From Candidatus Saccharimonadota bacterium (GTDB taxonomy: Bacteria; Patescibacteriota; Saccharimonadia; Saccharimonadales; OFTM59): a stretch of DNA of 64,000 nt. The notes beneath the pieces were generated by a model. It was not told where the DNA came from. It did not search any database and worked only from the letters and a program-made list of their open reading frames with translations. Shown in pieces: positions 1-26,536 of this stretch. The stretch spans positions 11,978-75,977 of the forward strand of contig JAJDCK010000011.1 of the NCBI GenBank assembly GCA_029260855.1, written 5' to 3'. Position numbers and translations under genes: made by a program. Each line of letters opens with the position of its first letter. Position 1 is the first letter of the stretch.

Positions 1-585
1 CTCTCTTCCGCCGTGTAAATCAGTACGGGATAATCGCCTGTCAGTATCTCTCATATTCACAAACCAATTAACGGACCCGTGTGGTTTGAGGTAATTATAG
101 GTCGTGTAATAATCTAAAGCTCCGCCCAGGGTGTATCCATAGACGTTGTTTAGAGCTTTGTCCAATAGTAGGTCGTAATTGAAATTAATGAACGCACATT
201 CGTCTTTGTCATCTACTTGCGCTAGCTTCTGGAGAAAAGCGTGATACCCGCTTGTATCAGAATATGTGGTAGATATCTGTACCATAGTCCACCAGATATA
301 AAGTGCTAAGTCCCCAAATAACTTCCTGCCAGCCGCTAATGCTTCTTTACCGTGAGGTTCGCCTAATTTTGTCCACCCTTTAGTTAGCCACTCCTCAATA
401 GACTCATCGCCTATGAGTTTTTTGAGTTGCTCAATACGACTCTTACTGACAAATACATCGGACGCATAAGTATGATATTGGCTATCGAAGAGGTTATTAA
501 TTAAAGGTGCGTGAAGCTGCGGCTGTAATTGCGACGTATCTTGAGAACCAAGACTGGCACCTGCACCAAAAATATAGACCTTCAT
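1..585 (-). CDS. SIR2-like (DHS-like NAD-binding) domain protein; N-terminal 195 codons only, C-terminus off the window
   Basis: Own reverse-strand translation (absent from the ORF track because it is open at the edge). ATG at 585-583 and no stop down to position 1. MKVYIFGAGASLGSQ..., FINFNYDLLLD and LKPHGSVNWF match the G-A-G-A-S loop, NYD and HGS motifs of SIR2-like proteins. Confidence 0.6.
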   Translation of the reverse strand, partial: MKVYIFGAGASLGSQDTSQLQPQLHAPLINNLFDSQYHTYASDVFVSKSRIEQLKKLIGDESIEEWLTKGWTKLGEPHGKEALAAGRKLFGDLALYIWWTMVQISTTYSDTSGYHAFLQKLAQVDDKDECAFINFNYDLLLDKALNNVYGYTLGGALDYYTTYNYLKPHGSVNWFVNMRDTDRRLSRTDLHGGRE

Positions 586-687
586 AAGATTATTGTATCG
601 CCTTACTAAATTTTTAGCTTGGTTTGCTGAACACTATCTTGCTACTACATAACATTTACCGACACTTTAGCCTATACTGTTAATACT

Positions 688-2757: not shown

Positions 2758-3400
2758 CTAAAATCGCATTCTCAAAAGCAGTTGCGGAAAAGATGTTTGG
2801 TCTAATCTCTTCACGTTTAGGTTCAGATATAATTTCAAGTCCTGTATCAGTTACCTCAATGAGTCCAACATTGTATTTCTCGAACTCACCAATAAACTTC
2901 CTTGCTCTGTGAATATATGGCGAGTACAGCGCCAAGTAGGACTGATTAGCGTAATCACGATAGCGATAGGCTTGATAAAGACCACGTCTCCAGTCTTTTA
3001 GCTTGGCTTCAATAGCGACTACCTCGCCAAACCCGACCTCATAATCTTTGACCTTTCTGTAGGAATCCTCAAGCTGTTGGATGAAACCATCTTCAAGAAG
3101 GTAGGTTAGCACTTCGTTTCTATTAGAAAACCCAGCCAATCTTTGTTTCAGCATTGTTATGCTTATGACTTCCTCAGCACCGCCTAAGTCATTTAGTAAT
3201 CGGATAATGTCGGCGGACTTAATTGGGGGGGTTCTTTGGCTGACTTTTGAAGTGTCTGGCTTTAGGTTATAAAAAACAACATCCGCGATGCCATAACCAG
3301 ATGATAGTTCCTGTGTTTCAAATTCAAAAGTACCCAGCTTATCTTTATTTGCAGATAAGATTGGCAACATTTGCGATTCGTAGGTTAGCATACGAGGCAC
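2750..3400 (-). CDS. Predicted PD-(D/E)XK nuclease with an inserted winged-helix domain
   Basis: E(TQE)...GIADVVF...[~55-aa wHTH-like insert IIRLLNDLGG..LTYLLEDGFI]...VVAIEAKLKDW...QAYRY gives a D / E-x-K arrangement. Its tail overlaps the kinase gene by 8 nt, in convergent orientation. Confidence 0.5.
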   Translation of the reverse strand: MPRMLTYESQMLPILSANKDKLGTFEFETQELSSGYGIADVVFYNLKPDTSKVSQRTPPIKSADIIRLLNDLGGAEEVISITMLKQRLAGFSNRNEVLTYLLEDGFIQQLEDSYRKVKDYEVGFGEVVAIEAKLKDWRRGLYQAYRYRDYANQSYLALYSPYIHRARKFIGEFEKYNVGLIEVTDTGLEIISEPKREEIRPNIFSATAFENAILVS

Positions 3401-3489
3401 ATTTCTATTATAAGCTTTTTTGTTTAAATTTTGTGCTTAAGCTTATATTAGCACCCGAGGCAAAATCCTACAAAGTATTGAGGTAGTGG

Positions 3490-3756
3490 CTACATATTCT
3501 CGCAAGCTATGCCATCACCATTTTCATCAAGATTATCAACATTATTGGTTTTACTGCCACCTTGAGCCTTGAAGTATCGCTGTGCTTCATCCTGGCTAGG
3601 AAAGTCGATGCAATTATAGTTAGTTCTGTCTGGATGAGGGAAAGCTTTATACGCCACGACTCCAATTCCTCCGATGATAATACAGGCGAATATAATAAGT
3701 CCGCCGAGAGTAACCACTTTTTCTCCTGTTGTGGCGTTGGGGTTGAAAAATGCCAT
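3490..3756 (-). CDS. Membrane-anchored Excalibur calcium-binding domain protein
   Basis: There is one TM helix (LGGLIIFACIIIGGIGVVAY). The C-terminus DFPSQDEAQRYF...DNLDENGDGIACE matches the Excalibur DxDxDGxxCE motif. An AAGGAGG RBS lies 5 nt before the ATG. Confidence 0.7.
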   Translation of the reverse strand: MAFFNPNATTGEKVVTLGGLIIFACIIIGGIGVVAYKAFPHPDRTNYNCIDFPSQDEAQRYFKAQGGSKTNNVDNLDENGDGIACENM

Positions 3757-4014
3757 ATGCCTCCTTAGTTATTAAGGACGGTAATTAAAAAGACCGCCCC
3801 AGTGAGCTTGCGCCCGATAACTCTTTCGAGCTACCACATAGTGAACTAGTCCTGGGACGGACTTTTGTTCACTATGATTTTTGACCATACCTTCTCTTGC
3901 GAGTGGCTTTAGGTCTAAGCCGAAACCGACTTATGCCATCAAGTATAACTTAAAGATATACACAACGGGAAAAACAGAGGTAATTTGAGCAAAAAATACA
4001 TACGAAAGGCTACG

Positions 4015-4040
4015 TTGACGCAAAAATAAGGTGATATAAT
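4015..4040 (+). promoter_or_regulatory. Putative extended -10 promoter (TTGACG ... TGaTATAAT)
   Basis: TTGACG at 4015-4020 and TG-A-TATAAT at 4032-4040. The spacer is only 14 nt, so the call rests on the extended -10 element. The predicted start falls on the first ACACGGCAAGC copy (4047). Confidence 0.35.
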
Positions 4041-4316
4041 GTATGTACACGGCAAGCTCTAAAATAAAGAGATAAAATATAATCTATTAATTTGACTTTT
4101 CTGCTGGAATTAACCAGACAGAGGCTTTCTACACGGCAAGCCAGAAGAAGAAAGGTCTTTTCTTGCCGTGTCTTCACCCAAGAATTTTAGGAAAACTCCG
4201 CCCAAAAAAGCGGATATTAAAAAGCAGTGTGACGACCTCGCCATACTGCTTCTGCGTGTGTACAAAAAGATGAAATTAACAGAGGAAAAAGGTATAATAG
4301 AAGCAGGAGAAAACCA

Positions 4317-5906
4317 ATGATTTCAAAGCAAAAAGCAGTCGCACTTTGTCGAGTATCAACTTCCAAGCAACGGATATTTGGTAACAGTCTAGATGCACAG
4401 GAAGCACGTATAGTTAAGGCTGCTGAACTGCTGGAGGTACTGCTCCCTGATAACTATATTTGGCGGATGGATATCTCCAGCAAAAAGGGTAAAAACATCA
4501 AGAGAAAAGACTTGAAGGAAATACGCGAGCTTTGCCGAAAAGATAAGAGTATCAAGTATTTTATCGTTGATGAACCAGACCGTTTTATGCGCTCAATTAA
4601 AGAGTTTTATTGGTGGAAAGTTGAATTTGAACAAATTGGGGTCGAACTTCGTTTTGCTCATAAGCCTCTTGCAAGTGATAACGACCAACACCACGTTTTT
4701 GATGAGCTTATAGATGTATATCGCGCTGAGTCGAGTAATCACGAACGCACTACTAAGGCGAATGAAAAGATGCAGTCAAGAATTGACTTAGGCTACTACC
4801 CAGGTTATTGCCATACAGGATATATGAAGTCTGACGTTAAAGGTATCCACGTTCCTAGCGAACCACAGTTTAGTTTGCTACAAGAAGCATATCGAGATGT
4901 TGCATCAGGAAAGAAGAGTTTGCGAGAAGCACTGACTTGGCTAGCAAGTGCTGGCTTTAAGTTAAAGAACGGTAAGAGGCTGGATATGATGCAATTCAAG
5001 CGCATCTTAAAAGAGCCTTATTACTATGGTGCAGTCAAAATGGGTGATTTCCAGCAGAACGAAAAAGGGCTTCATAAAGCTATGATAAATAAGGAAGAAT
5101 TTGAGATAGCTTCAAAGATTGCGAAGGGTCAGAAAGCACGGTTTACAGTTAATCGACATAACCCTGAATTTCCAATGAATGGGTTACTCTGCGAGGAATG
5201 CTTCATCAGTAACAAACGTTCTGACGGAAAGTTTACTGGGTACAAACACCACAATGGCAAAAAGGAAAGTTCACGTAAGTACTACAAGCGATATCGTTGT
5301 AGGAGCTGCGGGAATCCATTTACCCAAGAGGAACTGCACAAAAGAGTGAGTGACTACCTTGCGCCTGTTAGGCTTGCCCCAGAAGTGCGCGAAGAGCTTA
5401 TCCATAGCCTCCGCAAAGCGTGGGCTGAAATAGAGCAGGACAGCATAGCTGAGATTACACGACTTCGTACGCGTCTAACTCACGCTAATGAGCAGAAGAT
5501 GAGACTAGTTATATCACTAGCCGATAATCCTGAAAATAAAGCAGACACACAGGAAGCCATTGTTCTTAAAAAAGAAGAAATTGGCATTATCGAGGATGAG
5601 CTTACTAAAGCTCAGGATATAGAAAGTGACTTTAATGAATTCGTAGAGTTTTCACTCGGCTTCGTAGACAACTTAAAAGCAAATTGGTGGAGTCTCGACC
5701 ACGAAGACAGATTGAGGTGCGAAGAGCTTCTTTTCCCACAGTTTTTAAGGATTGATAAAAACAAAAAAGTTAGCACCCCAGAAATAAGCTACATTTACAG
5801 ATACAAGCCATCAAAAAAGACACCCGTAGGTGCCTTAAATGCTATATCTGGAGGGCCAGGAGGGACTCGAACCCTCGACATTCTGCTTAAGAGGCAGACG
5901 CTCTAA
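4317..5906 (+). CDS. Large serine recombinase (resolvase/invertase catalytic domain + recombinase domain + zinc ribbon + coiled coil)
   Basis: N-terminal AVALCRVSTSKQ carries the catalytic Ser motif. CEEC...CRSCG forms a zinc ribbon, followed by a long coiled-coil region. AGGAG RBS is present. The last ~19 codons are antisense to tRNA-Lys. Confidence 0.85.
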   Translation: MISKQKAVALCRVSTSKQRIFGNSLDAQEARIVKAAELLEVLLPDNYIWRMDISSKKGKNIKRKDLKEIRELCRKDKSIKYFIVDEPDRFMRSIKEFYWWKVEFEQIGVELRFAHKPLASDNDQHHVFDELIDVYRAESSNHERTTKANEKMQSRIDLGYYPGYCHTGYMKSDVKGIHVPSEPQFSLLQEAYRDVASGKKSLREALTWLASAGFKLKNGKRLDMMQFKRILKEPYYYGAVKMGDFQQNEKGLHKAMINKEEFEIASKIAKGQKARFTVNRHNPEFPMNGLLCEECFISNKRSDGKFTGYKHHNGKKESSRKYYKRYRCRSCGNPFTQEELHKRVSDYLAPVRLAPEVREELIHSLRKAWAEIEQDSIAEITRLRTRLTHANEQKMRLVISLADNPENKADTQEAIVLKKEEIGIIEDELTKAQDIESDFNEFVEFSLGFVDNLKANWWSLDHEDRLRCEELLFPQFLRIDKNKKVSTPEISYIYRYKPSKKTPVGALNAISGGPGGTRTLDILLKRQTL

Positions 5907-5925
5907 CCAGCTGAGCTACTGGCCC
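5849..5925 (-). tRNA. tRNA-Lys(CTT), CCA encoded
   Basis: GGGCCAGTAGCTCAGCTGGTTAGAGCGTCTGCCTCTTAAGCAGAATGTCGAGGGTTCGAGTCCCTCCTGGCCCTCCA folds as a manual cloverleaf with anticodon loop CT-CTT-AA. Confidence 0.93.
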
Positions 5926-6101
5926 TTGTCGGAACCGATGGTCGGCTTACATATAACAAATAATAACTTGTTATATTACATCCACTAGTCGCTTCCTCCT
6001 TTCAAATTTGCGAATCCCCTCGCAAATTTGTTTAGATGCAAAAAGCGCAACAGGGGAACTTTAGCAAATTACATCTGTTTTTTCAATGGTAGACTGTCAG
6101 T

Positions 6102-6692
6102 ATGAAGATACGTGAGCAGAAAGAGCTATTGCGGCGCGACTTAATAAAACACAGGCAAGCACTTACGCGCAGGGATGTAAATAATATAAGTCAAACAATT
6201 ATCAACCACTGTATTAGTTTTATACCATGGGGAAAAGTACGCTCGCTCCACACATATGGTCCCATTGCTGAGCAGAACGAAATAAATACTTGGCCCCTGC
6301 TGAAATATATTTGGGAAGATCAACCACACGTTACAACTCTAGTGCCCGTCATGGTTAAGCAAAAAATGCTTAACGTAGCGGTCAATGCTAAAACCAAATG
6401 GCGCAAAAATAAATTTGGCATCCCGGAACCCACTAATGCGACCGTGTCGCTTTTGTTTCATCAATTTGACTTCATAATCGTACCTGCGCTGGGCTTTGAC
6501 AAAAACGGATATCGGCTCGGCTATGGTAAGGGCTACTACGACAAATTCCTGGCAAAACAACCACACGCTACAACCATCGGACTTGCCTATGCCAACGCAG
6601 AAGCTAAAACAGGGCTGCCGGTTGAACCGCACGATGTTAAGCTGAACAATATAGTTACCGAGAGCGGCGTAGTGGAACCCATCCCAAGATAA
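6102..6692 (+). CDS. 5-formyltetrahydrofolate cyclo-ligase (MTHFS)
   Basis: The C-terminal motif GYRLGYGKGYYDKFL and the ~195-aa size are typical of the 5-FCL family. Confidence 0.8.
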   Translation: MKIREQKELLRRDLIKHRQALTRRDVNNISQTIINHCISFIPWGKVRSLHTYGPIAEQNEINTWPLLKYIWEDQPHVTTLVPVMVKQKMLNVAVNAKTKWRKNKFGIPEPTNATVSLLFHQFDFIIVPALGFDKNGYRLGYGKGYYDKFLAKQPHATTIGLAYANAEAKTGLPVEPHDVKLNNIVTESGVVEPIPR

Positions 6693-6817
6693 AATTTTGA
6701 GTTACAAGACGACTATTTTAGGCTGCAAACCGTTTATCACTCATCAACGTAATATCTATTACACTTCCTCGCGTTAAACAATTTTCGCTCTAAACTAGCA
6801 CATTTTTACTACCAAAA

Positions 6818-7288
6818 TTATCTTGAAATGCGTTCCAAAACTTCGTTCCAAAACTTAAGGCCATTTTGCTCTTTTATTTCACTATGCCATTTTTGGATAA
6901 AACCTTCTGAGTAATCAGGGAAGAATTGGTCGCAACCAAAATCAGCTTCAATGTGCGTCAAGTAAAGTTCCTCGGCTTGGCTAATCGCTTGGTTATATAC
7001 ATCAGCTCCGCCAATAACCCATACATCACTTAACGTGTTAAGTATTGATAAGTTATTTACTATTTGAGCGCCTGGTATAGGTATATGTCCCTTAGATAAA
7101 ACTAAGTTTCTCCGGCCGGGTAGGGGATGCCCGATTGCGTCATAAGTCCTCTTGCCCATTAATATAACGCCGCCCTTCCCCCTGGTTTGTTCACTAAAAA
7201 AGCGTCTGTCGTCTGGTAGGTCCCACGGTATGGCGCCATTTTTAGCAATACCACGCCTATTATCAATAGCGACAATTAGCCGGATCAC
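6818..7288 (-). CDS. folA: Dihydrofolate reductase
   Basis: IVAIDNRRGIAKNGAIPWDLPDDRRFF...LMGKRTYDAIG...GRRNLVLS are canonical DHFR motifs. Confidence 0.9.
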   Translation of the reverse strand: MIRLIVAIDNRRGIAKNGAIPWDLPDDRRFFSEQTRGKGGVILMGKRTYDAIGHPLPGRRNLVLSKGHIPIPGAQIVNNLSILNTLSDVWVIGGADVYNQAISQAEELYLTHIEADFGCDQFFPDYSEGFIQKWHSEIKEQNGLKFWNEVLERISR

Positions 7289-14795: not shown

Positions 14796-16313
14796 GTGCT
14801 AACCACAAACGAAAAAATTGGCCAGCTTATTTATCAGATACGACAAGACAGACGGCTTACCCAGGCTGAGTTTGCCCGTAAACTTGGCACGAGCCAGTCA
14901 GCTGTAAACCGTATCGAACATGGTAAACAAAACTTAAGCCTGGAAACACTCGGCCGCATCAGTGATGTGTTGAATAAGCCGCTTATTAGCATTGCCGGCC
15001 AATCTACCAACTTTAGGGTTGAAGGCGGCCATGAGCTTAAAGGCACAGTTGAGACAAAAACCGCCAAGAACAGTGCCGTTGCGCTGTTATGTGCAAGCTT
15101 GCTGAATAAGGGTAAAACCAAACTACTCAAAGTCCCTAGGATTGAAGAAGTAAATCGCATTATCGAAGTACTCATAAGTATGGGCGTAAAAGTCACTTGG
15201 TACGGTGGCAATAATCTTGAGATTAAGCCACCTACTAAATTGTCTATGGACAACCTTGACGCAAATTCCGCGCGCAGGACAAGAAGCGTAATTATGTTAG
15301 CTGGACCATTAATGCACGAATTCAAAGAATTTAAGATTCCTTATGCTGGCGGCTGCAAGCTCGGTAAGCGTTCTGTTCAAGCGCACTTGTATGGACTAGA
15401 AGAGTTTGGCGTAACGACAGATGTACGAGTAGGCCACTACCACATGTCTGTAAAGCAAAAAACTCCTGAAAAAGTTGTAATGTATGAAATGGGCGAAACG
15501 CCTATTGAGAATATGTTAATGGTCGCCGCACGTCAGACAAATACCGTTTCTATTCATCAATCCTCATCTAATTACAATGTGCAAGATTTGTGTCATTTCT
15601 TACTAAAACTTGGCGTCAAAATAACAGGTATCGGGAGCTCGCGGCTAAATATTACGGGCTTAGCAGATATAAATAAAACGGTTACATATACCGTCGGCGA
15701 GGATCCAGTAGATAGCATGTTTTTTATTGCCGCTGCTGTCGTAACAAACTCAGAGCTCACTATCACCCGCTGCCCGATTGAGTTCTTAGAGTTGGAGCTA
15801 CTGAAGCTAGAGAAAATGGGCTTGAAATTCGCTGTTAGCAAAGAATACTTAAGCGATAACAACCACACTAAGTTAGCCGATATAATAATCCATAAACACG
15901 ACACTTTAGTGGCGCCCAACGATAAAATTCATCCACTACCTTTCCCTGGCCTTTTGCCTGATAACCTGCCGTTCTTTGTTGTGATCGCGGCGGTATGTAA
16001 GGGTCGTACACTCATACATGACTGGATGTATGAAAACCGAGCGATTTACTTTACTGAGCTAAGCCGGCTGGGTGCTAATGTTGAGCTTATTGATGCCCAC
16101 CGGGTATATGTAAGCGGGCCAGCAAACTTTACCAGCGCAGACGTAACTTGCCCACCAGCCCTAAGACCAGCTGCCATATTATTAATCGGAATGCTCCAAG
16201 CAACTGGCACATCCGTACTTAGAAATGTCTACTCTATCAATCGCGGCTACGAAGACATTGCCGAACGGCTTAATAAGCTCGGGGCGCAGATCAACGTCGT
16301 TCACGAAATTTAG
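14796..16313 (+). CDS. murA: UDP-N-acetylglucosamine 1-carboxyvinyltransferase with an N-terminal XRE-type HTH domain
   Basis: Residues 1-65 form an HTH (RLTQAEFARKLGTSQSAVNRIEHGKQN). The rest is MurA/EPSP-synthase fold, including GGCKLGKRSV with the catalytic Cys. GTG start, with TATAAT at 14782-14787. Confidence 0.85.
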   Translation: MLTTNEKIGQLIYQIRQDRRLTQAEFARKLGTSQSAVNRIEHGKQNLSLETLGRISDVLNKPLISIAGQSTNFRVEGGHELKGTVETKTAKNSAVALLCASLLNKGKTKLLKVPRIEEVNRIIEVLISMGVKVTWYGGNNLEIKPPTKLSMDNLDANSARRTRSVIMLAGPLMHEFKEFKIPYAGGCKLGKRSVQAHLYGLEEFGVTTDVRVGHYHMSVKQKTPEKVVMYEMGETPIENMLMVAARQTNTVSIHQSSSNYNVQDLCHFLLKLGVKITGIGSSRLNITGLADINKTVTYTVGEDPVDSMFFIAAAVVTNSELTITRCPIEFLELELLKLEKMGLKFAVSKEYLSDNNHTKLADIIIHKHDTLVAPNDKIHPLPFPGLLPDNLPFFVVIAAVCKGRTLIHDWMYENRAIYFTELSRLGANVELIDAHRVYVSGPANFTSADVTCPPALRPAAILLIGMLQATGTSVLRNVYSINRGYEDIAERLNKLGAQINVVHEI

Positions 16314-18160: not shown

Positions 18161-19219
18161 CTACGGAATCCAGCGCTGGTTAAGGCCGCCGTGGCAATCC
18201 CAAACAATAATTTGTGTTCCGTTTGCTGTTCCTGGGCCAGCGGCGTCAAGGCAACGACCACTAGCGTGTGAAGCAAGAAGCGTGCCGGTACTGTCATCGC
18301 TGCCACCCCATTTCTGGTTTGCCCCGCCGTGGCAATCATAAATCTCAACAGGTGACCTGTTGTGTCCGCCAAATGCCGCGTCTACATCTAAACACTTACC
18401 GCTATGAACTGAGCGCAGCATCCCGCCACTTGCTACCCACTGCTGGTTTGCCCCGCCGTGGCAATCCCATAAGATAACCTGGGTGCCGTTTACGGTGCCC
18501 CAGCCTGAGACGTCAAGGCAACGATTGCCTGCACCAGCCGTTCTTATACGAAACCCCTGGACCTGTGCTGAAGCACTGCCGCTTCCCGGCTGCCCTGCTG
18601 CGCCTGAACTGCTCGTACCCGGGCTGCTGGTTCCCTGCGAACCACTAGTTCCGGTTCCATTACTGCCACTTGAACCGCTGCAACCACTACCTACGCAACT
18701 GCCGCTTCCACCCGCACCGCCAGCTCCGCCGTTTGACGCTTGCTGACCTGCTTGGCCGTTGTTGCCGCCACCGGTTCCGCCCTGAGTGGCACTTTCGTTG
18801 CTAGTCGAACTTTGTTGCTCAGAAGTTTTCAGTGCTTTTAATGCAACTTTGTGACGCGCTTTCATGGCGTCTTCTTCGGCTTCGTTATTGTCTTTCAATA
18901 CCTTGAGTTCATCTTCACAAATGTCTTCCTGACGGCCTGACATGGCGTCACACTGATCATCCTTGGTGTCTTCGGCTACTTCATGCCTGTCCTTTAGCGC
19001 CCTTAGTTCAGCCTTTTGTGTGTCCTTAAGGTTTTTGACAGCTGGGCTCACAGCAAACGAGGGTACAATCAATAAAGTGGCCACAATAGCAAACGCAACG
19101 ATGAACAACCATTTTCTTTGCTGACGGCTAGTAGCAACCTTTTTGGAGCGAGACGACCCAGTACGGTTGTTTGGTTTAGTATTTCTTTTTGCAGTAGTTT
19201 TCTTAGCGGTTTTTGCCAT
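18161..19219 (-). CDS. Membrane-anchored/secreted protein: charged coiled region + Gly/Ser linker + C-terminal ricin B-type (QxW)3 lectin domain
   Basis: Basic N-terminus plus TM (WLFIVAFAIVATLLIV). There are three repeats of CLD...G..V...DCHGG(A/L)NQ(Q/K/R)W. Confidence 0.8.
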   Translation of the reverse strand: MAKTAKKTTAKRNTKPNNRTGSSRSKKVATSRQQRKWLFIVAFAIVATLLIVPSFAVSPAVKNLKDTQKAELRALKDRHEVAEDTKDDQCDAMSGRQEDICEDELKVLKDNNEAEEDAMKARHKVALKALKTSEQQSSTSNESATQGGTGGGNNGQAGQQASNGGAGGAGGSGSCVGSGCSGSSGSNGTGTSGSQGTSSPGTSSSGAAGQPGSGSASAQVQGFRIRTAGAGNRCLDVSGWGTVNGTQVILWDCHGGANQQWVASGGMLRSVHSGKCLDVDAAFGGHNRSPVEIYDCHGGANQKWGGSDDSTGTLLASHASGRCLDAAGPGTANGTQIIVWDCHGGLNQRWIP

Positions 19220-19292
19220 TTAAAAGCCTTTTTATATTACTTATTAGATATTCTTATATAAGTATATAGATGCTTATGCTTAAAGTGTCAAG

Positions 19293-20437
19293 CTAAAGAA
19301 GGCCACTAGCTAACTCCTCGGAGCCACTGCTAAAGTTAGCTATAGTAACATCGCTGTCTAATGGCAGCTGAACAGGAGTTTGTGATTGTGCATGTTTAAG
19401 GTCGGCTGCTAGGTGTTTTTTCGTATACTCACGGTCATTCACGGCGGCCCTATTAGCAACAGTGCTCTGAGCTAACAATACGTTAGTAATTTTACCGTTT
19501 TCGTCGAGTATATAAGCCGTAGCACCGCTGGACCCTGCAAATGGCACGTACGATCTGACACCTTTAACCCACACTCTTTCTTCGCCGTACCCTTTCACGT
19601 CTGTTCCCGGCCCTAAATACACGCCGTGATAAATATTCAATTGTTGATTAGAGTCTACTCTCACTACTAACGCTTGCGACCCAGGCATGGGAGCTTCGCT
19701 ACCTAGTTGGGTTGGCTCAACCTCATCAAGGGCAGGCGATGCGTTCTTAGGCTCTACTAGAAGTAAATCGGCTTTCATGCTGCCTGCGTTTGCGATCATG
19801 GCGCCAGCTTCAGCCACTGGCTGTGTTGGGCTGCCACCCGGCTGGGTAAAGACTATATCCCACTGGGAAGCTTCAGCTAAATTCACTGGCCTTACTGCGA
19901 CATCCGGGCTATCAAACCTATCTAAAAGGCCTGTTGTTTTGCCGGCTTCATCCCTATCAAGGCAGTGGAAGGCGGTGCTGAATACGTTTTGGCTATCACC
20001 CTTTTCGTCGGTAATACGAATGTAGTTGCTAGACAATATGGCGCGTATGCTTCACTTGAGCCTTTTTGCTTCCGCCACAGAACGAAAGTGCTCTGTTTCA
20101 GTTTATCCTCCGGGGTCAGCACTTCTACGCCCTTTTCACGCTGTTCCTTGTTATCTTCTACATGCTTTAGCCCAATATCCGTTAGCGCATCTTCAACAGT
20201 TGTGGTGTAGCCGTTACCTGGGTCAGATAATTCACCAGTATCTATATCACCGCCAGGGTGTGCGGCAGGCTTTTCGCCGCTAAAAGCTTGTACTAAGGGG
20301 TTCATAGAAGCTGCCAATGCAAGCACCAGAGCTATCTGCCCAAGCCGACTCCTTAGGAAACCTGGCTGATGAGGGTTTTGTTGTCTTTCTACTGTTTGTG
20401 GATCGGACATTTGTGTTTCGCCGTCTGTGGCTGTCAT
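19293..20437 (-). pseudogene. Secreted trypsin-like serine protease split into two overlapping frames (19922-20437 signal/N-terminal part; 19293-20051 protease part)
   Basis: The upstream ORF has a signal-like IALVLALAASMNPLVQA. The downstream frame has STAFHCL (His motif) and FAGSSGATAY (Ser motif) but no signal peptide. The two frames overlap at 19922-20051. Confidence 0.5.
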
Positions 20438-20491
20438 GCTAGTATGATAGCATAAGCATGTTGTTATGTCAAATCTGTTATGTGGGTAATT

Positions 20492-22744
20492 TTACCAGGT
20501 GCCCCACTTTTGATTTTTGGCCCCACTGACACAATCCCAGACCTGGAGGTTGGCGCCATTATCTATTTTGTTGTCTTTTACGTCTAAACACCTGCCAGTA
20601 GCAGCCGACCTGATCGTTCCGTCGCTGTTCCACTGCCATCTTTGATGAGAGCCACCGTTACAGTCGTAAATTTGTACATCAGTACCGTTCTTGGTCTTGC
20701 CTCCTTCAACCTCCAAACATAATCCGCTGGCGGCAAGTCGTATAGTTCCATCGGTAGCAAGCCCCCACTTCTGGTTGGTGCCACCGTGACAGTCCCAGAT
20801 CTGTGTGTCTTTACCTGCCTTGATGCCGTCCGCATCCATACATCGGCCGCTGGCGTGACTCCTGATTACATACTGTGCAACTGCGGGGGGTTTATCTGTA
20901 GACGAGGCTGCGCTTGTGGTTGTAGTTTTTCCGTCAGGAGTAGTTGTGGTACAAGTGCCGTTCTTGCAAGACGTCTTAGTAGAGCCACTATAGCTACTGC
21001 CTTGGGATTGACCACCTATAGAGACTCCGCCCTGTGAACCCTTGGAGCCTTGCTGGCCACTTGTGCCTGAGGTGCCCGATGAGCCCTGCGCGCCTGATGC
21101 TCCTGGTGAACCAGGGGAACCTTGGGTAGCAGTACCTGGATTACTTGTTCCTGGTTGGCCTGGGGTGCTTGTTCCTGATTGACCAGGCTTACAGCCCCCG
21201 GTACAAGCGCCTGAGCCACCGGCTCCTCCATCACCACCCACCGTGTTGTTGCCAGTAGCTGTACCACCAGCACCACCTTGACCACCGGTCCCTTGCCCGA
21301 TGCTAGCCCCTGCTTGACCAGGTGTTCCCGGTTGAGGAGGTTTTACAATAATTGCATTTGGATCATAATCACCCCCTATCCCGCCTGGGCGAGGTACGAC
21401 TTTTGGTCCTAGATCAGCAACCGCGCCTGTGTCTAGAGGGTCGACATTGAGGAACATTTTATCGTGCATAACAACCCACATATCACGGGTAACAACCCCG
21501 CTACAGCCGGAATAGGTTGCTGCGGTACATTTTGCTGTACTAAACAAATCTTTATTTTCAAATTTAAACTTCTTTACAGCTAATTCTGTACCTAGGCCAA
21601 AAATTCCGTCAATGCGTGTTTCGCGGTCAGGTCCAAGCTCAGGGCCGTAACCAAGATCTTGCAGATGGGCTTGTATGTGTTCAACGCATAAACCTTTTTC
21701 ACCCCTCTTCCACTCTTCTCTGTGACACTCCACTTGGGTTACTATCGTAGGAGGCGGACCACCTGTGACTGGCGTACTTGAGCCACCACCCCCACAACTA
21801 CGATAATGGGGTGCTGGGTCTTGTAGTATATTGCCCTTTCTCATTTCAAAATGTAAGTGAGAACCCGTGACAGCGCCACTAGAATCAGTGTAGCCTAGAA
21901 GTTGACCGGCTGTCACGTTAGGATTAGCGAGAACTTTTGGATTTATCCGCAGTAAGTGTGCGTATTTAAAGTTATAGCTGCTACCGTTTAAGTCTATCTG
22001 GAGACCGTATCCGCTCGTATCGCTCACCCTGCCTGATATAGAAACTCTACCGCTCTGCGCAGCATATATGCCGTCGCCATCTCCAGCAGCTATATCAATC
22101 CCGTGGTGCGCTTTTTTACTACCAGTTATGGGATGTGGCCTAGGATCGGTGTGAAAAACCCTGGTAATTCCACGAGACTTGCTGATTGGACAGTGTATGG
22201 ATGCGTTGACGCTGGCGATTACTAAAGGCGCTTCGTCACCGAACGACGGTCCATTTTTGAGACTGCCCCCAGGATATGCCCAGCAAGCTACACTCGCTGG
22301 ATCCGCTATCCAATGACTCTTCCCTGATCCATTGTTGAAAATTTCTGCAAATCTCGCATCTTGAACATCCCTTGGGGCACTTTTAGCGGTAGGATATCCA
22401 CGATAGTTACCCCATGTACCATTTATAAACTGGTAAGCGCCACTCGCGGTTGAGAATGAGCTTTGAGCTGTATAATCTTCACTGCCGTAGGTACCATCAC
22501 CGCTTTCGCAAGCCCGAATTCGAGGTGCCATAAAGCCGGTGTTATTGTTCGCGGCGTGGCTAGTATCACTAGAGGCATAGCTTGTTATAAGCATAACCGT
22601 GCCGACAACTGCAAAGCCTGTCACAAAAAGAATCATAACCTGTTTTTTGTCTCGTAATTTAAAAACTCTTTTCATGAGACCCCTGGAAGCCGGTGGCCTT
22701 ACGTATGATTTCTTGGCAGAAGTTTTTTTACCCATTTGATTCAT
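20492..22744 (-). CDS. Multidomain cell-wall hydrolase/lectin: TM anchor, Rpf-like transglycosylase domain, M23 peptidase, PG_binding_1 domain, Gly-rich linker, ricin B lectin
   Basis: ACESGDG...GAYQF..TW (transglycosylase-like); HHGID...GSHLHFE (M23 HxxxD/HxH); LQDLGYGP...DGIFGLGTELAVKKF (PG binding); three C..D....(W/Y)DC.(G/S)G..Q(K/R)W lectin repeats at the C-terminus. Confidence 0.85.
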   Translation of the reverse strand: MNQMGKKTSAKKSYVRPPASRGLMKRVFKLRDKKQVMILFVTGFAVVGTVMLITSYASSDTSHAANNNTGFMAPRIRACESGDGTYGSEDYTAQSSFSTASGAYQFINGTWGNYRGYPTAKSAPRDVQDARFAEIFNNGSGKSHWIADPASVACWAYPGGSLKNGPSFGDEAPLVIASVNASIHCPISKSRGITRVFHTDPRPHPITGSKKAHHGIDIAAGDGDGIYAAQSGRVSISGRVSDTSGYGLQIDLNGSSYNFKYAHLLRINPKVLANPNVTAGQLLGYTDSSGAVTGSHLHFEMRKGNILQDPAPHYRSCGGGGSSTPVTGGPPPTIVTQVECHREEWKRGEKGLCVEHIQAHLQDLGYGPELGPDRETRIDGIFGLGTELAVKKFKFENKDLFSTAKCTAATYSGCSGVVTRDMWVVMHDKMFLNVDPLDTGAVADLGPKVVPRPGGIGGDYDPNAIIVKPPQPGTPGQAGASIGQGTGGQGGAGGTATGNNTVGGDGGAGGSGACTGGCKPGQSGTSTPGQPGTSNPGTATQGSPGSPGASGAQGSSGTSGTSGQQGSKGSQGGVSIGGQSQGSSYSGSTKTSCKNGTCTTTTPDGKTTTTSAASSTDKPPAVAQYVIRSHASGRCMDADGIKAGKDTQIWDCHGGTNQKWGLATDGTIRLAASGLCLEVEGGKTKNGTDVQIYDCNGGSHQRWQWNSDGTIRSAATGRCLDVKDNKIDNGANLQVWDCVSGAKNQKWGTW

Positions 22745-22788
22745 ATCAATCTCGGTTTACGTTTATCATGTTCTTTAAGTATCCTGTT

Positions 22789-23430
22789 TTACTCATCATG
22801 ACCATGGGCCTCTTCTGGCACCTCTGGATACCCAAACTCTTCATCGCAACAATAGTCTATAGCATCAGGATCTTCAATTACTTGATCTAACTGGAATCTG
22901 TTTATCTCTTCATTAGTTGGGTTCTTGGGAACAGGTAAACATGGAGCCCCTTTGATGGTGCCTGCTGGTTTCCAGCATTCCATAGTACTTTTCCATCGAG
23001 TACTACCGGTGGCGGGATCGTTCCAGTCGGTGGTAAACTTATCGTTTTGCACAACTGCGGGAGCTAGTCGAGCTTCACTAAAGCCACCAAAATTATTCCA
23101 TTCCTTTATATTATAATTAAAAGCCCCGCTGCGTGAACCTTCTCCCTTTGCCTCATAATCCCCTTGGCCCCATATACCCTGACCGGTTTCACACGCGATA
23201 ACTCTAACAATCCAGTAGTCTGCATTGCCGAAATAACGTGGCTTAGCGGCTGCGAACGAAGAAGTGACTAAATAGGTACCGATAAGAGCAACTCCTATCA
23301 CAAAAATTAACTTAACTCTTTGCTTACCGTTTCTATTCATTCCGCGGAACCAGTTTTTGATAAAGCCTCGTTGATTATTGCTCCGGCTAGTCGCTCTTGT
23401 GTTGCTCCGCTTCAGTGTTTTCTTTTTCAT
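22789..23430 (-). CDS. Membrane-anchored protein with divergent Rpf-like transglycosylase domain
   Basis: Basic N-terminus plus TM; IACETGQG...SGAFNYNIKEW. Confidence 0.6.
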   Translation of the reverse strand: MKKKTLKRSNTRATSRSNNQRGFIKNWFRGMNRNGKQRVKLIFVIGVALIGTYLVTSSFAAAKPRYFGNADYWIVRVIACETGQGIWGQGDYEAKGEGSRSGAFNYNIKEWNNFGGFSEARLAPAVVQNDKFTTDWNDPATGSTRWKSTMECWKPAGTIKGAPCLPVPKNPTNEEINRFQLDQVIEDPDAIDYCCDEEFGYPEVPEEAHGHDE

Positions 23431-23441
23431 AATTTTTAGGC

Positions 23442-24035
23442 TTACTCTGCTTCCTGTTCATAGGCGCAGGAGCTACCTAGACCTAGTTCACTCGCGCTAG
23501 GTGCGGGAGTCTGGGCAACAGGAGTTTTGTCGTTGCTAGGTGCCGGCGATTGCGCAGGAGCTATTGATTGATTTTGGGGGGTAGTCGGTTTTTCTGATTG
23601 ATTGGCCTGATCGGGCGCGTCAGATTCTTCCGCAGCAGCAGACTGTGTGTTGACATCACCGAACAGTGATGAGTCAGGTAGGGTCAGTTTGACCTCTTCT
23701 GGAGGAGCAGGCAAGTTGACGGGTTGTATCCATTCTGGGTTGTCTTTTTTTCTACTAACTATGAAGTTGAGACGGCTAAACGTATCGTTTACTCTTAGCC
23801 CAACGCGCTCGCGGAGGCTGTCGCCTCGTGAATCAAGTGTTTTTCGGTCTAAATTTTCTCCGTAATTAACTGGCGCGAATGCAGTCACGACTAGATAAAT
23901 ACCAATCAACCCTAAGGCAAACACCAGAACTGAAGCAAGCTGTGATTTACGTGAATGCCGTAGGCGTAGTATGAACTTTTCAGATACACTGTTTTGTTGC
24001 TTGGCCATTCTTTTCCTGGTAGTTTTCTTTTTCAT
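23442..24035 (-). CDS. Membrane-anchored protein with Pro/Ala/Gln/Ser-rich tail
   Basis: Basic N-terminus plus TM (LASVLVFALGLIGIYLVVTAFA), then a low-complexity C-terminal half. Confidence 0.6.
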   Translation of the reverse strand: MKKKTTRKRMAKQQNSVSEKFILRLRHSRKSQLASVLVFALGLIGIYLVVTAFAPVNYGENLDRKTLDSRGDSLRERVGLRVNDTFSRLNFIVSRKKDNPEWIQPVNLPAPPEEVKLTLPDSSLFGDVNTQSAAAEESDAPDQANQSEKPTTPQNQSIAPAQSPAPSNDKTPVAQTPAPSASELGLGSSCAYEQEAE

Positions 24036-24135
24036 ACGTACAAACTGTCCCTGTGGTAGTTTGTTATTTTTAACGAGCCTGTGTTCAGTTGTACGCGCTT
24101 ATGTTTTATATGTCAAGGTTGGAAGAAGTGAGGTG

Positions 24136-24591
24136 CTAGCGACTTATAGAACCGCTCGGGGCACTAGGTGCGCTTGGAGAAGTCGACGACCCTGACTGCC
24201 CTGGAACACTTGGAGAGCCGGATGTACCCGGGGTGCCTGGTGCGCTTGAGCCGGGTGCGCCGCTACCAGGAGCACCCGAAGAGCCGGTACCTGGACTACC
24301 AGAGCTACCCCCGCAGCCACTGCCGGTACAACTGCTGCTACCACCCGCGCCACCCGCACCTCCGTTAGCCCCAGGCTGACCAGAACTGCCATTATTAGAG
24401 TTCGGGGGACACAAGCTAGCAGCCAATACGCTTACTACAAAGTACAAGCCAATTAGTGCAAAAGTGGCTACAAAAAGTGCTTTTCTGGGTGAATTTTTAA
24501 GGTTTGCGATAAAACTCATCGTACCTTTTCCTGGTCTTTTAGAGGTTTTACTACGATTAGGTGCTGCTTTTCTTATAGTTTTTTTAGTCAT
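24136..24591 (-). CDS. Membrane-anchored Gly/Ser/Pro-rich protein
   Basis: Basic N-terminus plus TM; NGGAGGAGGSSSCTGSGCGGSSGS motif is shared with the 18161 and 20492 genes. Confidence 0.6.
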   Translation of the reverse strand: MTKKTIRKAAPNRSKTSKRPGKGTMSFIANLKNSPRKALFVATFALIGLYFVVSVLAASLCPPNSNNGSSGQPGANGGAGGAGGSSSCTGSGCGGSSGSPGTGSSGAPGSGAPGSSAPGTPGTSGSPSVPGQSGSSTSPSAPSAPSGSISR

Positions 24592-24592
24592 T

Positions 24593-25366
24593 TTATAGCC
24601 CCAACCAGCCAGATACCCTAGTGTTAAATGTCTGAACTACGGCCAGCACCCCTCCGGTCTTGGGGCAAAAGATACTGCTATCGCCAGTACCACTTGTCGT
24701 GCTGGAGCTACCACCGGTACCAGCAGAGTCACTGTCGCTTGATCCTTGATTGCTTGAGCCAGAGTTGCTGCTACCAGAGCTGCCGCTAACGCCCGTGCCG
24801 AATTGTCCGGACTGTCCTGTGCCCGTGCCAAGCCCGCCTACACCACCCTGACCGCCACCTGTTCCACTTCCCGCTTGACCGGCTGGTCCGCTTGAACCGG
24901 CGCTATCACTAGAGCCCTGCCCGGTTTGGCCGCTTGCTGTCGTACCAGCTGAGCCGCTTGATCCTTGATTGCTTGAGCCAGGGTTGCTGCTACCAGCGCT
25001 GCCGCTAGCGCCCGTGCCGTCGCTGCCCACCGCACCGCTGCCAGTCCCTATGCCATCCGCACCATCCTGCCCGTTCGCGTCCGTTTGTGATGCACCAGTG
25101 TTTTGGTTAATACCAGCTAAGCTGTTGAAGAAACCACCTACGCGTTCTTGAAACGTAAGGTTTTGGTCTGCGTCACCCCCTATCAATGTATTGCCGCGAC
25201 TTGCTGAACGGTAAGCTGACACTGAAGAAGCTATTAGGTAGAATCCAACCACAGCTACTGTAAGCATGATCAATGGAGCCTTGCTACTGGAGCCTCGCCA
25301 GTTGTCTAGCAAACTTTTTGAGCTAGTGGGGTTTTTTGTTGTCTTGCGTATGTTTGTGTTTTTCAT
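24593..25366 (-). CDS. Membrane-anchored Gly/Ser-rich protein with internal duplication
   Basis: Basic N-terminus plus TM. A 65-nt near-identical repeat lies at 24736-24800 and 24955-25019 (period 219 nt). Confidence 0.6.
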   Translation of the reverse strand: MKNTNIRKTTKNPTSSKSLLDNWRGSSSKAPLIMLTVAVVGFYLIASSVSAYRSASRGNTLIGGDADQNLTFQERVGGFFNSLAGINQNTGASQTDANGQDGADGIGTGSGAVGSDGTGASGSAGSSNPGSSNQGSSGSAGTTASGQTGQGSSDSAGSSGPAGQAGSGTGGGQGGVGGLGTGTGQSGQFGTGVSGSSGSSNSGSSNQGSSDSDSAGTGGSSSTTSGTGDSSIFCPKTGGVLAVVQTFNTRVSGWLGL

Positions 25367-25388
25367 TTATCCCAATACCGCCCTGAGG

Positions 25389-25994
25389 TTATTGGCACGA
25401 ATTACCGTTACTGCCGGAGGTGCCACTTGCGCCATTACTACCGCCAGCACCCCCCGAGGCACCCGCGCTACTACTACTGTTACTACCGCTGCCGCTTGCA
25501 CCCGAGCTGCCGGTACCGCTTGAGCCGTTGCTGCCGGAGCTACTACCAGACCCTGGAGCACCATCATGTCCTTGGTTGTTTATGTGTGTAGCGACAGTGC
25601 TAACTCCACACACATTACTTTGCGCTTTGTTTTGTCTCTTAAATGAGTCTTTCAGATTGTCATAGACGTCATCATTGCGGTTTTTCAGGTCTTTCAACTG
25701 GTCCTTACAGGTCCTCTCGGCTGCCCGGTTTTCAATTTGTTTACATTGAGCTTTCTTAGCGTCTTCGGTATTCTCATGCTGTTGCTTGAGGATTGTAAGC
25801 TGGCTTTTTTGGGCGTTAGTTAGAGAAGCTGCTTCCGAGGTTACGGCCAAAATGCTGCCGAGCGCTGCAAAAAGCAGCACCAAAACTAATATGCGTTGTT
25901 TGCTGGATAAAGCCCGGAGTTTGCCCATTATCCCCTGGGCGGGTTTACTAGCTGCTCTAGTTTTTCGGGCGGTTGAAACTTTTGATTTTGGCAT
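25389..25994 (-). CDS. Membrane-anchored protein: charged Cys-containing helical region + Gly/Ser tail; paralogue of the N-terminal half of 18161-19219
   Basis: LTILKQQHENTEDAKKAQCKQIENRAAERTCKDQLKDLKNRND compares with LRALKDRHEVAEDTKDDQCDAMSGRQEDICEDELKVLKDNNE. Confidence 0.6.
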   Translation of the reverse strand: MPKSKVSTARKTRAASKPAQGIMGKLRALSSKQRILVLVLLFAALGSILAVTSEAASLTNAQKSQLTILKQQHENTEDAKKAQCKQIENRAAERTCKDQLKDLKNRNDDVYDNLKDSFKRQNKAQSNVCGVSTVATHINNQGHDGAPGSGSSSGSNGSSGTGSSGASGSGSNSSSSAGASGGAGGSNGASGTSGSNGNSCQ

Positions 25995-26113
25995 TATATT
26001 TCCCTTATTTTTGTTTTTGTTAACTTACCGTATAAACATAAGCTTATTCCGAATATACCTACTGTGTCAACTCAATAGCTCGCATTTTATAACCGGACTA
26101 GGTAGGTTGCTTG

Positions 26114-26536
26114 CTAAATTGATTTACAGGTTTTAATGCCATTTTTAGTTGTGCAGACAGTCCCTGTAGCAGGAGCGCCGGGAGCACTTGGTGCACTAGG
26201 AGCGCTTGATTTCCCTGGTGCGCCGGGAGCACTGGAACTGCCGTCCGCACCACGACTACCAGGCGCAGTTTTGACATCTTCACCTTGGCCAGGCGCACCT
26301 GGCTGGCCGACGGCATCTTTGCCTGGTGTACCGTTACAATTGTTGTTATTATTGCTGCTGGCAACGCAGGTGTTGTCCGTACCGGTGGCTCCGTCTGCTC
26401 CCTTACTATTCAGTCCTTCGGGTGGAGGGCATAGTGCAAGCGCGCCAATCACTAGTAGCGTACCGGCCGCCGCAAAGGTCAGGATGAATAATGCTTTCTT
26501 GGGTGAGCGCTTTATCCAGACCCCTAAACGCTGCAT
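26114..26536 (-). CDS. Membrane-anchored Gly/Pro/Ser/Ala-rich Cys-containing protein
   Basis: TM (ALFILTFAAAGTLLVIGALALC), low-complexity body, and a C-terminal CTTKNGIKTC motif. The start overlaps the ymdB stop by 13 nt. Confidence 0.55.
   Translation of the reverse strand: MQRLGVWIKRSPKKALFILTFAAAGTLLVIGALALCPPPEGLNSKGADGATGTDNTCVASSNNNNNCNGTPGKDAVGQPGAPGQGEDVKTAPGSRGADGSSSAPGAPGKSSAPSAPSAPGAPATGTVCTTKNGIKTCKSI

Follow-up and report, generated by a model that had tools for sequence, protein, structure and literature searches.

The gene and its modules

We analyzed a 64,000-nucleotide stretch of contig JAJDCK010000011.1 (positions 11,978 to 75,977, forward strand) from the Candidatus Saccharimonadota bacterium assembly GCA_029260855.1, here called the window, and focused on the gene at positions 20492..22744 of its minus strand. 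In the window list of open reading frames (ORFs) it is a single ORF of 750 aa at exactly these positions, encoding an exported-type multi-module peptidoglycan hydrolase-lectin with domain matches along its full length. An independently assembled Logan contig (L001, SRR15505513), which is 99.97% identical to the window across 9.4 kb, encodes the same 750-aa protein residue for residue, so the long chain is not specific to a single assembly. From its N-terminus the protein consists of a leader, an Rpf-like module, an M23 module, a PG_binding_1 domain, a Gly-rich segment, a Ser/Thr-rich spacer and a ricin lectin. An earlier note on this DNA had described five modules in one ORF. All five are present, two of them in a form other than described: the peptidoglycan-binding (PGB) part is a single domain and the Gly-rich part is no passive linker. 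The motifs quoted in that note were all found (ACESG at 78-82, GAYQF at 102-106 with GTW, HHGID at 213-217 and HLHFE at 296-300). All 18 cysteines fall into module-local pairs, the pattern expected of an extracytoplasmic protein. All module coordinates given below lie, like the gene, on the minus strand.

Hydropathy and charge define an export leader (22577..22744) composed of a basic n-region of 35 aa (12 K/R, 1 D/E), a hydrophobic helix at aa 36-56 and an AxA-like site (SYA followed by SS). This Sec-type leader, with its unusually long and basic n-region, would carry the protein over the membrane and is predicted to be cleaved after SYA. The leader precedes an Rpf-type lysozyme-like (transglycosylase-like) module at aa 67-166 (22247..22546) with the candidate catalytic residue Glu80 and a Cys79/Cys154 pair. 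Scanned alone, this module scores 24.2 bits against PF06737 with its 27-bit cutoff, and a scan of the full-length protein gives no match. Rpf-like relatives also score under the threshold (P0198, 26.5 bits; P0135, 17.9 bits). We therefore file the module as an Rpf-like divergent lysozyme-superfamily module and not as a bona fide PF06737 member. A nine-sequence subfamily profile searched against PDB matched RpfC (E 4e-5) and RpfE (E 4e-3). In the profile alignment the invariant ESGG falls on CESGGNW of Rpf, and Glu80 is invariant in the subfamily alignment. The AlphaFold2 (AF2) model shows predicted local distance difference test (pLDDT) values of 81-95 across the Rpf-like core, and a Foldseek search returned RpfB/E/C of M. 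tuberculosis as its best 14 PDB matches, with classical lytic transglycosylases ranking lower. Target-normalised template modelling (TM) scores are 0.49-0.75 for isolated Rpf catalytic domains and 0.27-0.35 for multi-domain RpfB entries (probabilities 0.85-1.0), with E-values of only 0.01-0.15 and a mean pLDDT of 69 for the searched model. Cys79-Glu80 and Cys154, the two cysteines being a candidate disulfide, are present as in the adjoining paralogue described below (ACETG ... ECW). Overall, this is a divergent Rpf-like module in which the predicted catalytic Glu (E80) and the Cys pair around it (79/154) are intact.

The M23 zinc endopeptidase module at aa 185-316 (21797..22192) is bracketed by Cys185/Cys317 and matches Peptidase_M23 (PF01551) over aa 212-310 with 67.6 bits against a cutoff of 28.7 bits (E 1e-18). 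Its residues H213xxxD217, H263 (YAHL) and H296-L-H298 align with those of active Csd3, Csd1/2 and ShyA-type / Vibrio peptidases. The AF2 model of this module is confident (pLDDT 87-97), and Foldseek returned Csd1/2, ShyA, lysostaphin and LytM with E-values of 4e-9 to 1e-6. The glycan-cleaving and peptide-cleaving modules named in the earlier note are thus both there, and motif alignments and the Rpf profile show that both have kept their catalytic residues; both are probably enzymatically active.

A single PG_binding_1 domain follows at aa 339-432 (21449..21730). There is one copy, not the repeat described before, and a loop bounded by Cys406/Cys414 is inserted in it. The PF01471 match covers aa 354-394 and scores 21.7 bits against a 23-bit threshold. 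Homologues pass the threshold over the same segment (P0121, 34.5 bits; P0123, 25.3 bits; P0216, 51.9 bits; P0135, 43.5 bits; P0198, 71 bits), which makes the assignment credible. AF2 models of the PGB domain and of the region before the Gly-rich segment are too poor for use (pLDDT 30-54). At the C-terminus, aa 623-750 (20495..20878) form a ricin-type beta-trefoil lectin (CBM13-like) with three QxW lobes and three disulfide pairs, one Cys pair per lobe. The Ricin_B_lectin match spans aa 625-747 (E 6e-32; PF00652 and PF14200, RicinB_lectin_2, score 111 and 117.9 bits), and the best PDB match is the CBM13 of a Streptomyces xylanase (1knl, E 4e-24). This confirms the carbohydrate-binding beta-trefoil of the earlier note as a canonical three-lobed ricin domain. 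The QxW motifs lie at 658-660 (QKW), 701-703 (QRW) and 745-747 (QKW). The alpha and gamma lobes carry D...Q-x-W...N-Q, which we take to be the pattern expected from ricin B, while the beta lobe has E678 and H700.

The PGB and ricin domains are joined by a Gly/Ser/Thr-rich stretch of about 150 aa (aa 469-622). Its first part, a conserved Gly-rich module at aa 469-588 (20981..21340), consists of the block GASIGQGTGGQGGAGGTATGNNTVGGDGGAGGSGACTGGC with CxGGC at 514-518 and of Gly-X-Y triplets, 11 of which run in register from aa 542 (GSPGSPGASG...GSQG; about 21023-21121). Shuffling gave a run of such length in 4 of 20,000 trials (P = 2e-4). Sequence and family alignment place a Ser/Thr-rich spacer with a Cys593/Cys598 pair (CKNGTC) at aa 589-622 (20879..20980).

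Conservation, rarity and origin of the protein

To define the distribution of the protein, we combined a word-indexed search of 5.8 billion proteins, which returned the protein itself and one homologue (P0002), with an exhaustive phmmer search of 1.84 billion cluster representatives, which added three more (P0121, P0122 and P0123). The family consists of about 5 clusters in 15 billion proteins, its five members being our protein and these four relatives. None of its members occurs among 185,579 species-representative genomes (GTDB), where only unrelated M23 matches in Clostridia were found, and JGI metagenome contigs and viral contigs contain no relatives. Close Saccharimonadales relatives are plentiful in the searched protein collection: the DnaK encoded in the window shares 88-93% identity with proteins named Candidatus Saccharimonadales, Saccharibacteria or Patescibacteria, which fill its match list. 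The family is accessory and not core. This supports the earlier note in setting the protein apart from conserved housekeeping autolysins, as its body is shared by just four other clusters in the 1.84 billion representatives.

All four relatives contain a leader and the M23, PGB, Gly-rich and ricin modules, and none contains the Rpf-like module. Apart from the protein itself, the five-module form was not found among the 1.84 billion representatives, and the architecture is seen only in the lineage of this genome. Conservation differs strongly between modules. Identity to the four relatives is 30-35% for M23, 9-41% for PGB, 54-85% for the Gly-rich segment and 72-84% for ricin. The codon comparison was made with L002 (Logan SRR33230311), whose positions 1-6844 hold the syntenic island of a related organism. 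This island and that of the window end at the same tRNA. Syntenic genes next to ours share 27-55% identity with their L002 counterparts, so the C-terminal cassette is the unusual part. The proportion of synonymous differences (pS) is 0.68-0.89, and synonymous divergence is saturated everywhere. The proportion of nonsynonymous differences (pN) is 0.10 for the Gly-rich segment (at pS 0.74), 0.17 for ricin, 0.43 for M23 and 0.54 for PGB, corresponding to a dN/dS of about 0.03 for the Gly-rich segment at saturated dS. We reject recent horizontal exchange of the Gly-rich/ricin cassette, since the saturation at synonymous sites extends to it (pS 0.74-0.89). Saturated pS combined with low pN attributes the similarity of the cassette to purifying selection. 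What the earlier note called a flexible linker is under stronger constraint than any other part of the family, and the codon comparison shows that it is under long-term purifying selection and is not a passive spacer.

The block conserved in the family reads GASIG[QE]GTGG.GGAGGTATG.NTVGGDGG.GG.G.C.GGC. The Gly-X-Y run, 11 triplets long in our protein and 10-11 in the four relatives, keeps its register in 5/5 members while the X and Y residues vary. Searches with the segment found no family in Pfam, with no match to Collagen (PF01391) even at E <= 10, and none in PDB, where only weak, composition-driven collagen-like similarities appeared. Although its Gly-X-Y repetition is uninterrupted, the run is short and gives no profile match, and the segment is therefore not filed as a member of the collagen family (PF01391). 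An attractive reading is that of a short collagen-like stalk, possibly stapled by disulfides, which with 10-11 proline-poor triplets is far from assured. In any case the protein contains a Gly-rich module that belongs to no described family and is more constrained than the enzymes that it joins.

A comparison of the N-terminal regions suggests how the five-module protein arose. The mature chain of the four relatives starts at CP[IL], right behind the signal anchor. Our protein contains IHCPIS at 183-188, and the residues just ahead of it, PLVIASVNAS, look like the end of a signal peptide of the relatives (P0002 MLVFASRAETVPMSCPIS versus PLVIASVNASIHCPIS in our protein). The junction at aa 167-184 (SFGDEAPLVIASVNASIH; 22193..22246) therefore looks like a relic of the signal-peptide end of an ancestral M23 gene. 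The leader and Rpf-like part of our protein, including the Rpf-like module itself, is closest (44-51% identity) to a gene type encoding leader, Rpf-like, PGB and in some cases ricin modules (P0135, P0198). In L002 the corresponding modules are found in separate genes that encode an Rpf-like module only, M23-PGB-Gly-ricin, a protease, Rpf-like-PGB-ricin, and a classical PF06737 Rpf with a Gly-rich part. Given relatives that lack the Rpf-like module, the apparent signal relic and the separate genes of L002, the five-module protein is best explained as a gene fusion. A leader and Rpf-like module would have been joined to an M23-PGB-Gly-ricin gene, with the breakpoint in the former signal peptide, inside an accessory island whose modules are repeatedly reshuffled between related genomes.

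The Rpf-like plus M23 core is not unique. The uncharacterised proteins P0054, P0087, P0088 and P0026 share the subfamily motif ESGGxY...SASGAYQxIDSTW...APPAVQD followed by M23 in one chain, and P0115 contains the two modules in reverse order. Two of these proteins are annotated PF06737+PF01551. They differ from our protein in that identity is 28-31% over about 30% of the query, PGB, Gly-rich and ricin modules are missing, and the helical spacer between the modules is longer. Their composition suggests that they come from high-GC actinobacteria.

The strong conservation of the C-terminal cassette could also mean that the protein is mainly an adhesin for lectin-mediated host attachment with vestigial enzymes, as conservation is far higher in the ricin and Gly-rich modules than anywhere else and the enzyme modules drift. 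We regard this as very unlikely, because our protein retains the Rpf Glu and every zinc/catalytic residue of M23, the M23 zinc/catalytic motifs are invariant across the five-member family, and the addition of a new Rpf module points to selection for enzymatic function.

The surrounding island and chromosome

The gene is located in a run of nine consecutive minus-strand genes (18161-26536), all with exported-type leaders. In eight of the nine the n-region comprises 31-40 aa with 7-14 K/R (10-14 in most, 7 in one) and 0-1 acidic residues; the exception, 26114-26536, has an n-region of 14 aa with 5 K/R. All of the leaders continue with a single hydrophobic helix and an AxA-like site. The long basic leader may be a Sec signal typical of the lineage, or else a tag dedicated to export. 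Adjoining our gene, 22789..23430 (minus strand) encodes a paralogue of 213 aa with only a leader and an Rpf-like module (ACETG...), which matches aa 1-166 of our protein (BLASTP E 5e-22, 29% identity) and has a syntenic counterpart in L002. Two further minus-strand paralogues share the C-terminal modules: a 352-aa protein (18161..19219) with leader, coiled-coil-like region, Gly-rich segment (GGAGGAGGSGSCVGSGC) and ricin domain (Pfam, 96.8 bits), and a 151-aa protein (24136..24591) with a leader and a Gly-rich segment containing CTGSGC, which is 50% identical to the C-terminus of the classical-Rpf protein of L002. Motifs related to the Cys-containing block (GGAGG...C.G.GC) are found in two window paralogues. 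Small exported proteins encoded at 25389-25994 and 26114-26536 (minus strand) have Gly/Ser-rich tails with terminal Cys (…GSNGNSCQ and …CTTKNGIKTCKSI, respectively). These tails echo the Cys-pair motifs of the Gly-rich segment, and the proteins have no family match.

Downstream of our gene lies an exported protease-like gene (19293..20437, minus strand; 381 aa once repaired) with weak Trypsin_2 similarity. It is split into two overlapping ORFs by a 1-bp deletion near 20027 (20020-20035) that changes AAA to AA relative to L001 and represents either a sequencing/assembly error or recent pseudogenisation. The repaired ORF is 27% identical to L002 3248-4399, the homologue in which Trypsin_2 is matched at E 0.002. 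A promoter-like site at 20444-20472 (minus strand; TTGACA-17-TATCAT with upstream TG, 11/12), the strongest of the region, is positioned between the stop of our gene and the start of the protease-like gene, which may accordingly have its own promoter. The G+C content of the island is about 0.50-0.52, compared with mostly about 0.41-0.50 elsewhere in the window. As this could reflect Gly/Ala/Pro-rich coding, we do not use it as a sign of foreign origin.

The window is ordinary chromosome. Its genes include RecA, RecX, TsaE, RNase Y, YmdB, sortase, MurA, MurB, Mur ligase, SHMT, PurD, DnaK/J, RuvB, ComEC and type IV pilus PilB/C/M, and the island is flanked by RNase Y/YmdB and a tRNA, with RecA and TsaE close by. 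Several other features of the window were recorded. A LOOT RNA (Rfam RF03000) is matched at 3804-3915 (minus strand) with 65.8 bits against a gathering score of 46.4 bits; a literature search for the LOOT motif yielded nothing directly relevant. A 529-aa serine-recombinase-like ORF with weak XisF similarity (4317-5906, plus strand) overlaps with its 3' end a tRNA at 5852-5925 (minus strand), which may mark the border of an integrated element. The MurA ORF (14796-16313, plus strand, GTG start) carries an N-terminal XRE/HipB-type helix-turn-helix at aa 7-60 ahead of its MurA domain (aa 72-502), representing either a real fusion or a small upstream gene read through in frame. A 438-aa protein encoded at 54315-55631 (minus strand) contains both a putative ATP-dependent zinc protease domain and a RimK-like ATP-grasp domain.

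This setting bears on the possibility that the protein is a prophage- or phage-derived endolysin or a virion-associated lysin. Its M23 module does match PHROG endolysin and tape-measure families, and mycobacteriophage LysA proteins mix M23, Rpf-type transglycosylase and peptidoglycan-binding domains (PMC3314691). The PHROG matches however fall on the M23 segment, apart from two short ones, one to the PGB and one to the ricin segment, and 0/8 neighbours match a phage structural, lysis or other known-function PHROG; the ricin paralogue at 18161-19219 alone matches one PHROG of unknown function, via its ricin domain. A tblastn search of 50,697 phage genomes gave a single match (14%, ricin-only). 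No relatives exist in viral contigs, the protein has its own Sec-type leader, and the flanking RNase Y/YmdB and tRNA with nearby RecA and TsaE are chromosomal. On the combined evidence of PHROGs, phage tblastn, viral contigs and chromosomal flanks we reject a phage or prophage origin, to which we assign hardly any probability. The earlier note had seen phage endolysin or effector logic in the domain arrangement. The endolysin half of this view is not supported (own leader, chromosomal flanks, no phage relatives), while the effector half is reasonable because Saccharibacteria, to which the source organism belongs, have been cultured as obligate epibionts of Actinobacteria (PMC10633639).

Proposed function and comparison with known systems

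We propose that the protein of this Saccharimonadales (TM7) bacterium is an exported, lectin-targeted, dual-activity peptidoglycan hydrolase, accessory in nature and probably used on the wall of an actinobacterial host, a reading to which we give a probability of about 0.5. Rpf-type enzymes cut glycan strands, and M23 enzymes cut peptide bridges or stems. The Rpf-type module (Glu80) would accordingly cut glycan strands, and the M23 module, with a zinc site of H213/D217/H298 judged from motifs plus H263/H296, would cut peptide cross-links. PG_binding_1 would hold the enzymes on murein, and the ricin trefoil, at the far end of the Gly-rich stalk, would bind a glycan that is probably wall-associated and would set target specificity. 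The protein, secreted or surface-displayed, would dock by its lectin on wall glycan and open the peptidoglycan locally. This peptidoglycan is most likely that of the host: the likeliest target is the actinobacterial wall where the cells attach, and the purpose would be breaching, feeding or lysis. RpfB and RipA are glycan- and peptide-cleaving enzymes that synergise on peptidoglycan (Hett et al. 2008; PMC2262848), and two activities in one chain would give the same synergy. Host-glycan targeting has been proposed for essential envelope proteins with glycan-binding domains in a cultured Saccharibacterium (PMC10633639). The mode by which Ca. Mycosynbacter lyses Gordonia is described as unknown, and one resistance mutation affects arabinan synthesis (PMC11880426). 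A literature search on Saccharibacteria with M23/ricin/Rpf or collagen-like proteins returned nothing directly relevant.

Several observations weigh against this proposal. The Rpf-like module lies under its Pfam curated threshold in this protein and the PGB module just below its own. Should the leader remain uncleaved as an anchor, it would hold the catalytic modules next to the cell's own membrane, and the lectin alone would reach outward. The organism makes its own murein (MurA, MurB and Mur ligase in the window), which makes its own wall just as accessible a substrate. A family this rare cannot be a general Saccharibacteria mechanism, and the frameshifted downstream gene hints at island decay or assembly errors.

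Some of these points favor a self-directed autolysin that is anchored by its N-terminal helix and remodels the organism's own wall during growth, budding, daughter separation or type IV pili passage, with lectin and stalk binding the cell's own surface layer or serving as adhesin only. This is the alternative that we take most seriously, though we still consider it unlikely. Besides own murein synthesis, the proximity of the enzymes to the anchor with a distal lectin fits this explanation, as does the role of RpfB/RipA-type pairs in cell division (PMC2262848). Many M23 proteins are housekeeping endopeptidases, and matches of our protein include proteins named MepM/NlpD. A core division enzyme should however be conserved, in contrast to the few clusters found here, and the catalytic modules diverge fast (30-35% identity) and are shuffled between genes. 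A ricin/CBM13 lectin is in addition, to our knowledge, unusual in housekeeping autolysins.

A bacteriocin-like lysin of the lysostaphin/zoocin type, aimed at competitors such as rival epibionts or non-host bacteria, would explain the accessory, patchily distributed gene and its export leader. M23 plus a targeting domain is the design of lysostaphin and zoocin A, whose PDB chains are among the M23 matches. No adjacent immunity-type gene was recognised, the neighbours being without family matches, and the sequence gives nothing to tell a competitor from a host as target. We think this explanation improbable.

A more far-reaching form of the host-wall proposal, which we offer as speculation that may well be wrong, is that of a host-wall-breaching "collectin-lysin" effector. 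Its Gly-rich stalk would oligomerise through a CxGGC knot and short Gly-X-Y helix and present several ricin heads to a glycan of the actinobacterial wall, for example galactan or arabinogalactan. If true, such a protein would deliver two complementary murein hydrolases at the contact site and would provide a chemical mechanism for host penetration or lysis by cultured Saccharibacteria. By analogy only, collagen-stalk lectins (collectins; BclA/Scl) similarly place a Gly-X-Y run directly upstream of a carbohydrate-binding head. Our protein differs from them in having 10-11 triplets with few prolines and a ricin trefoil head instead of a C-type lectin or C1q domain.

How Saccharibacteria and other Patescibacteria open or lyse host walls is an acknowledged open question ("physical or chemical"; PMC11880426), for which the protein is a concrete, clonable candidate. 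Genetic work has so far pointed generally to envelope proteins with glycan-binding domains (PMC10633639). The protein offers two separable enzyme modules, its lectin ligand could reveal a host determinant, and the relatives without the Rpf module are natural "controls". Whatever its function, the protein clearly illustrates how exported wall-active modules are shuffled and fused in an accessory island.

Among known systems, RpfB-RipA of M. tuberculosis likewise pairs an Rpf-type domain with a peptide-cleaving wall hydrolase in a synergistic manner (PMC2262848). Our protein contains both activities in one polypeptide, uses an M23 zinc peptidase instead of NlpC/P60, has a divergent Rpf-like module, adds a lectin and a Gly-rich stalk, and comes from a Saccharibacterium and not an actinobacterium. 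Mycobacteriophage LysA endolysins, which are aimed at actinobacterial walls, combine M23, pfam06737 transglycosylase and pfam01471 peptidoglycan-binding domains in many arrangements (PMC3314691). In contrast to them, our protein lacks a phage context, has its own leader instead of a holin and contains a ricin domain and a conserved Gly-rich module. Lysostaphin and zoocin A are also exported M23 enzymes with specificity from a separate wall-targeting domain; our protein differs in using ricin and PGB domains instead of SH3b, in its second, glycan-cleaving enzyme and in the lack of a recognised immunity gene. In VirB1-like hydrolases of type IV secretion systems (T4SSs), the peptidase can be NlpC/P60. 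Those of monoderm T4SSs (PrgK, TraG, CwlT) are membrane-anchored and combine glycan- and peptide-cleaving domains, with CHAP as peptidase (PMC12102498). The combination of activities is the same as in our protein, where the peptidase type differs (M23). The window ORFs that received an annotation encode housekeeping or type IV pilus functions and include no gene of the VirB4/VirD4 type, with several small ORFs left unscanned. On the basis of these annotated ORFs we reject a T4SS VirB1-like hydrolase. The protein works like RpfB-RipA, LysA, lysostaphin and VirB1-like systems yet belongs to none of them: its parts are familiar from multi-domain peptidoglycan hydrolases, and it is set apart by its lineage, its fusion and its constrained Gly-rich module.

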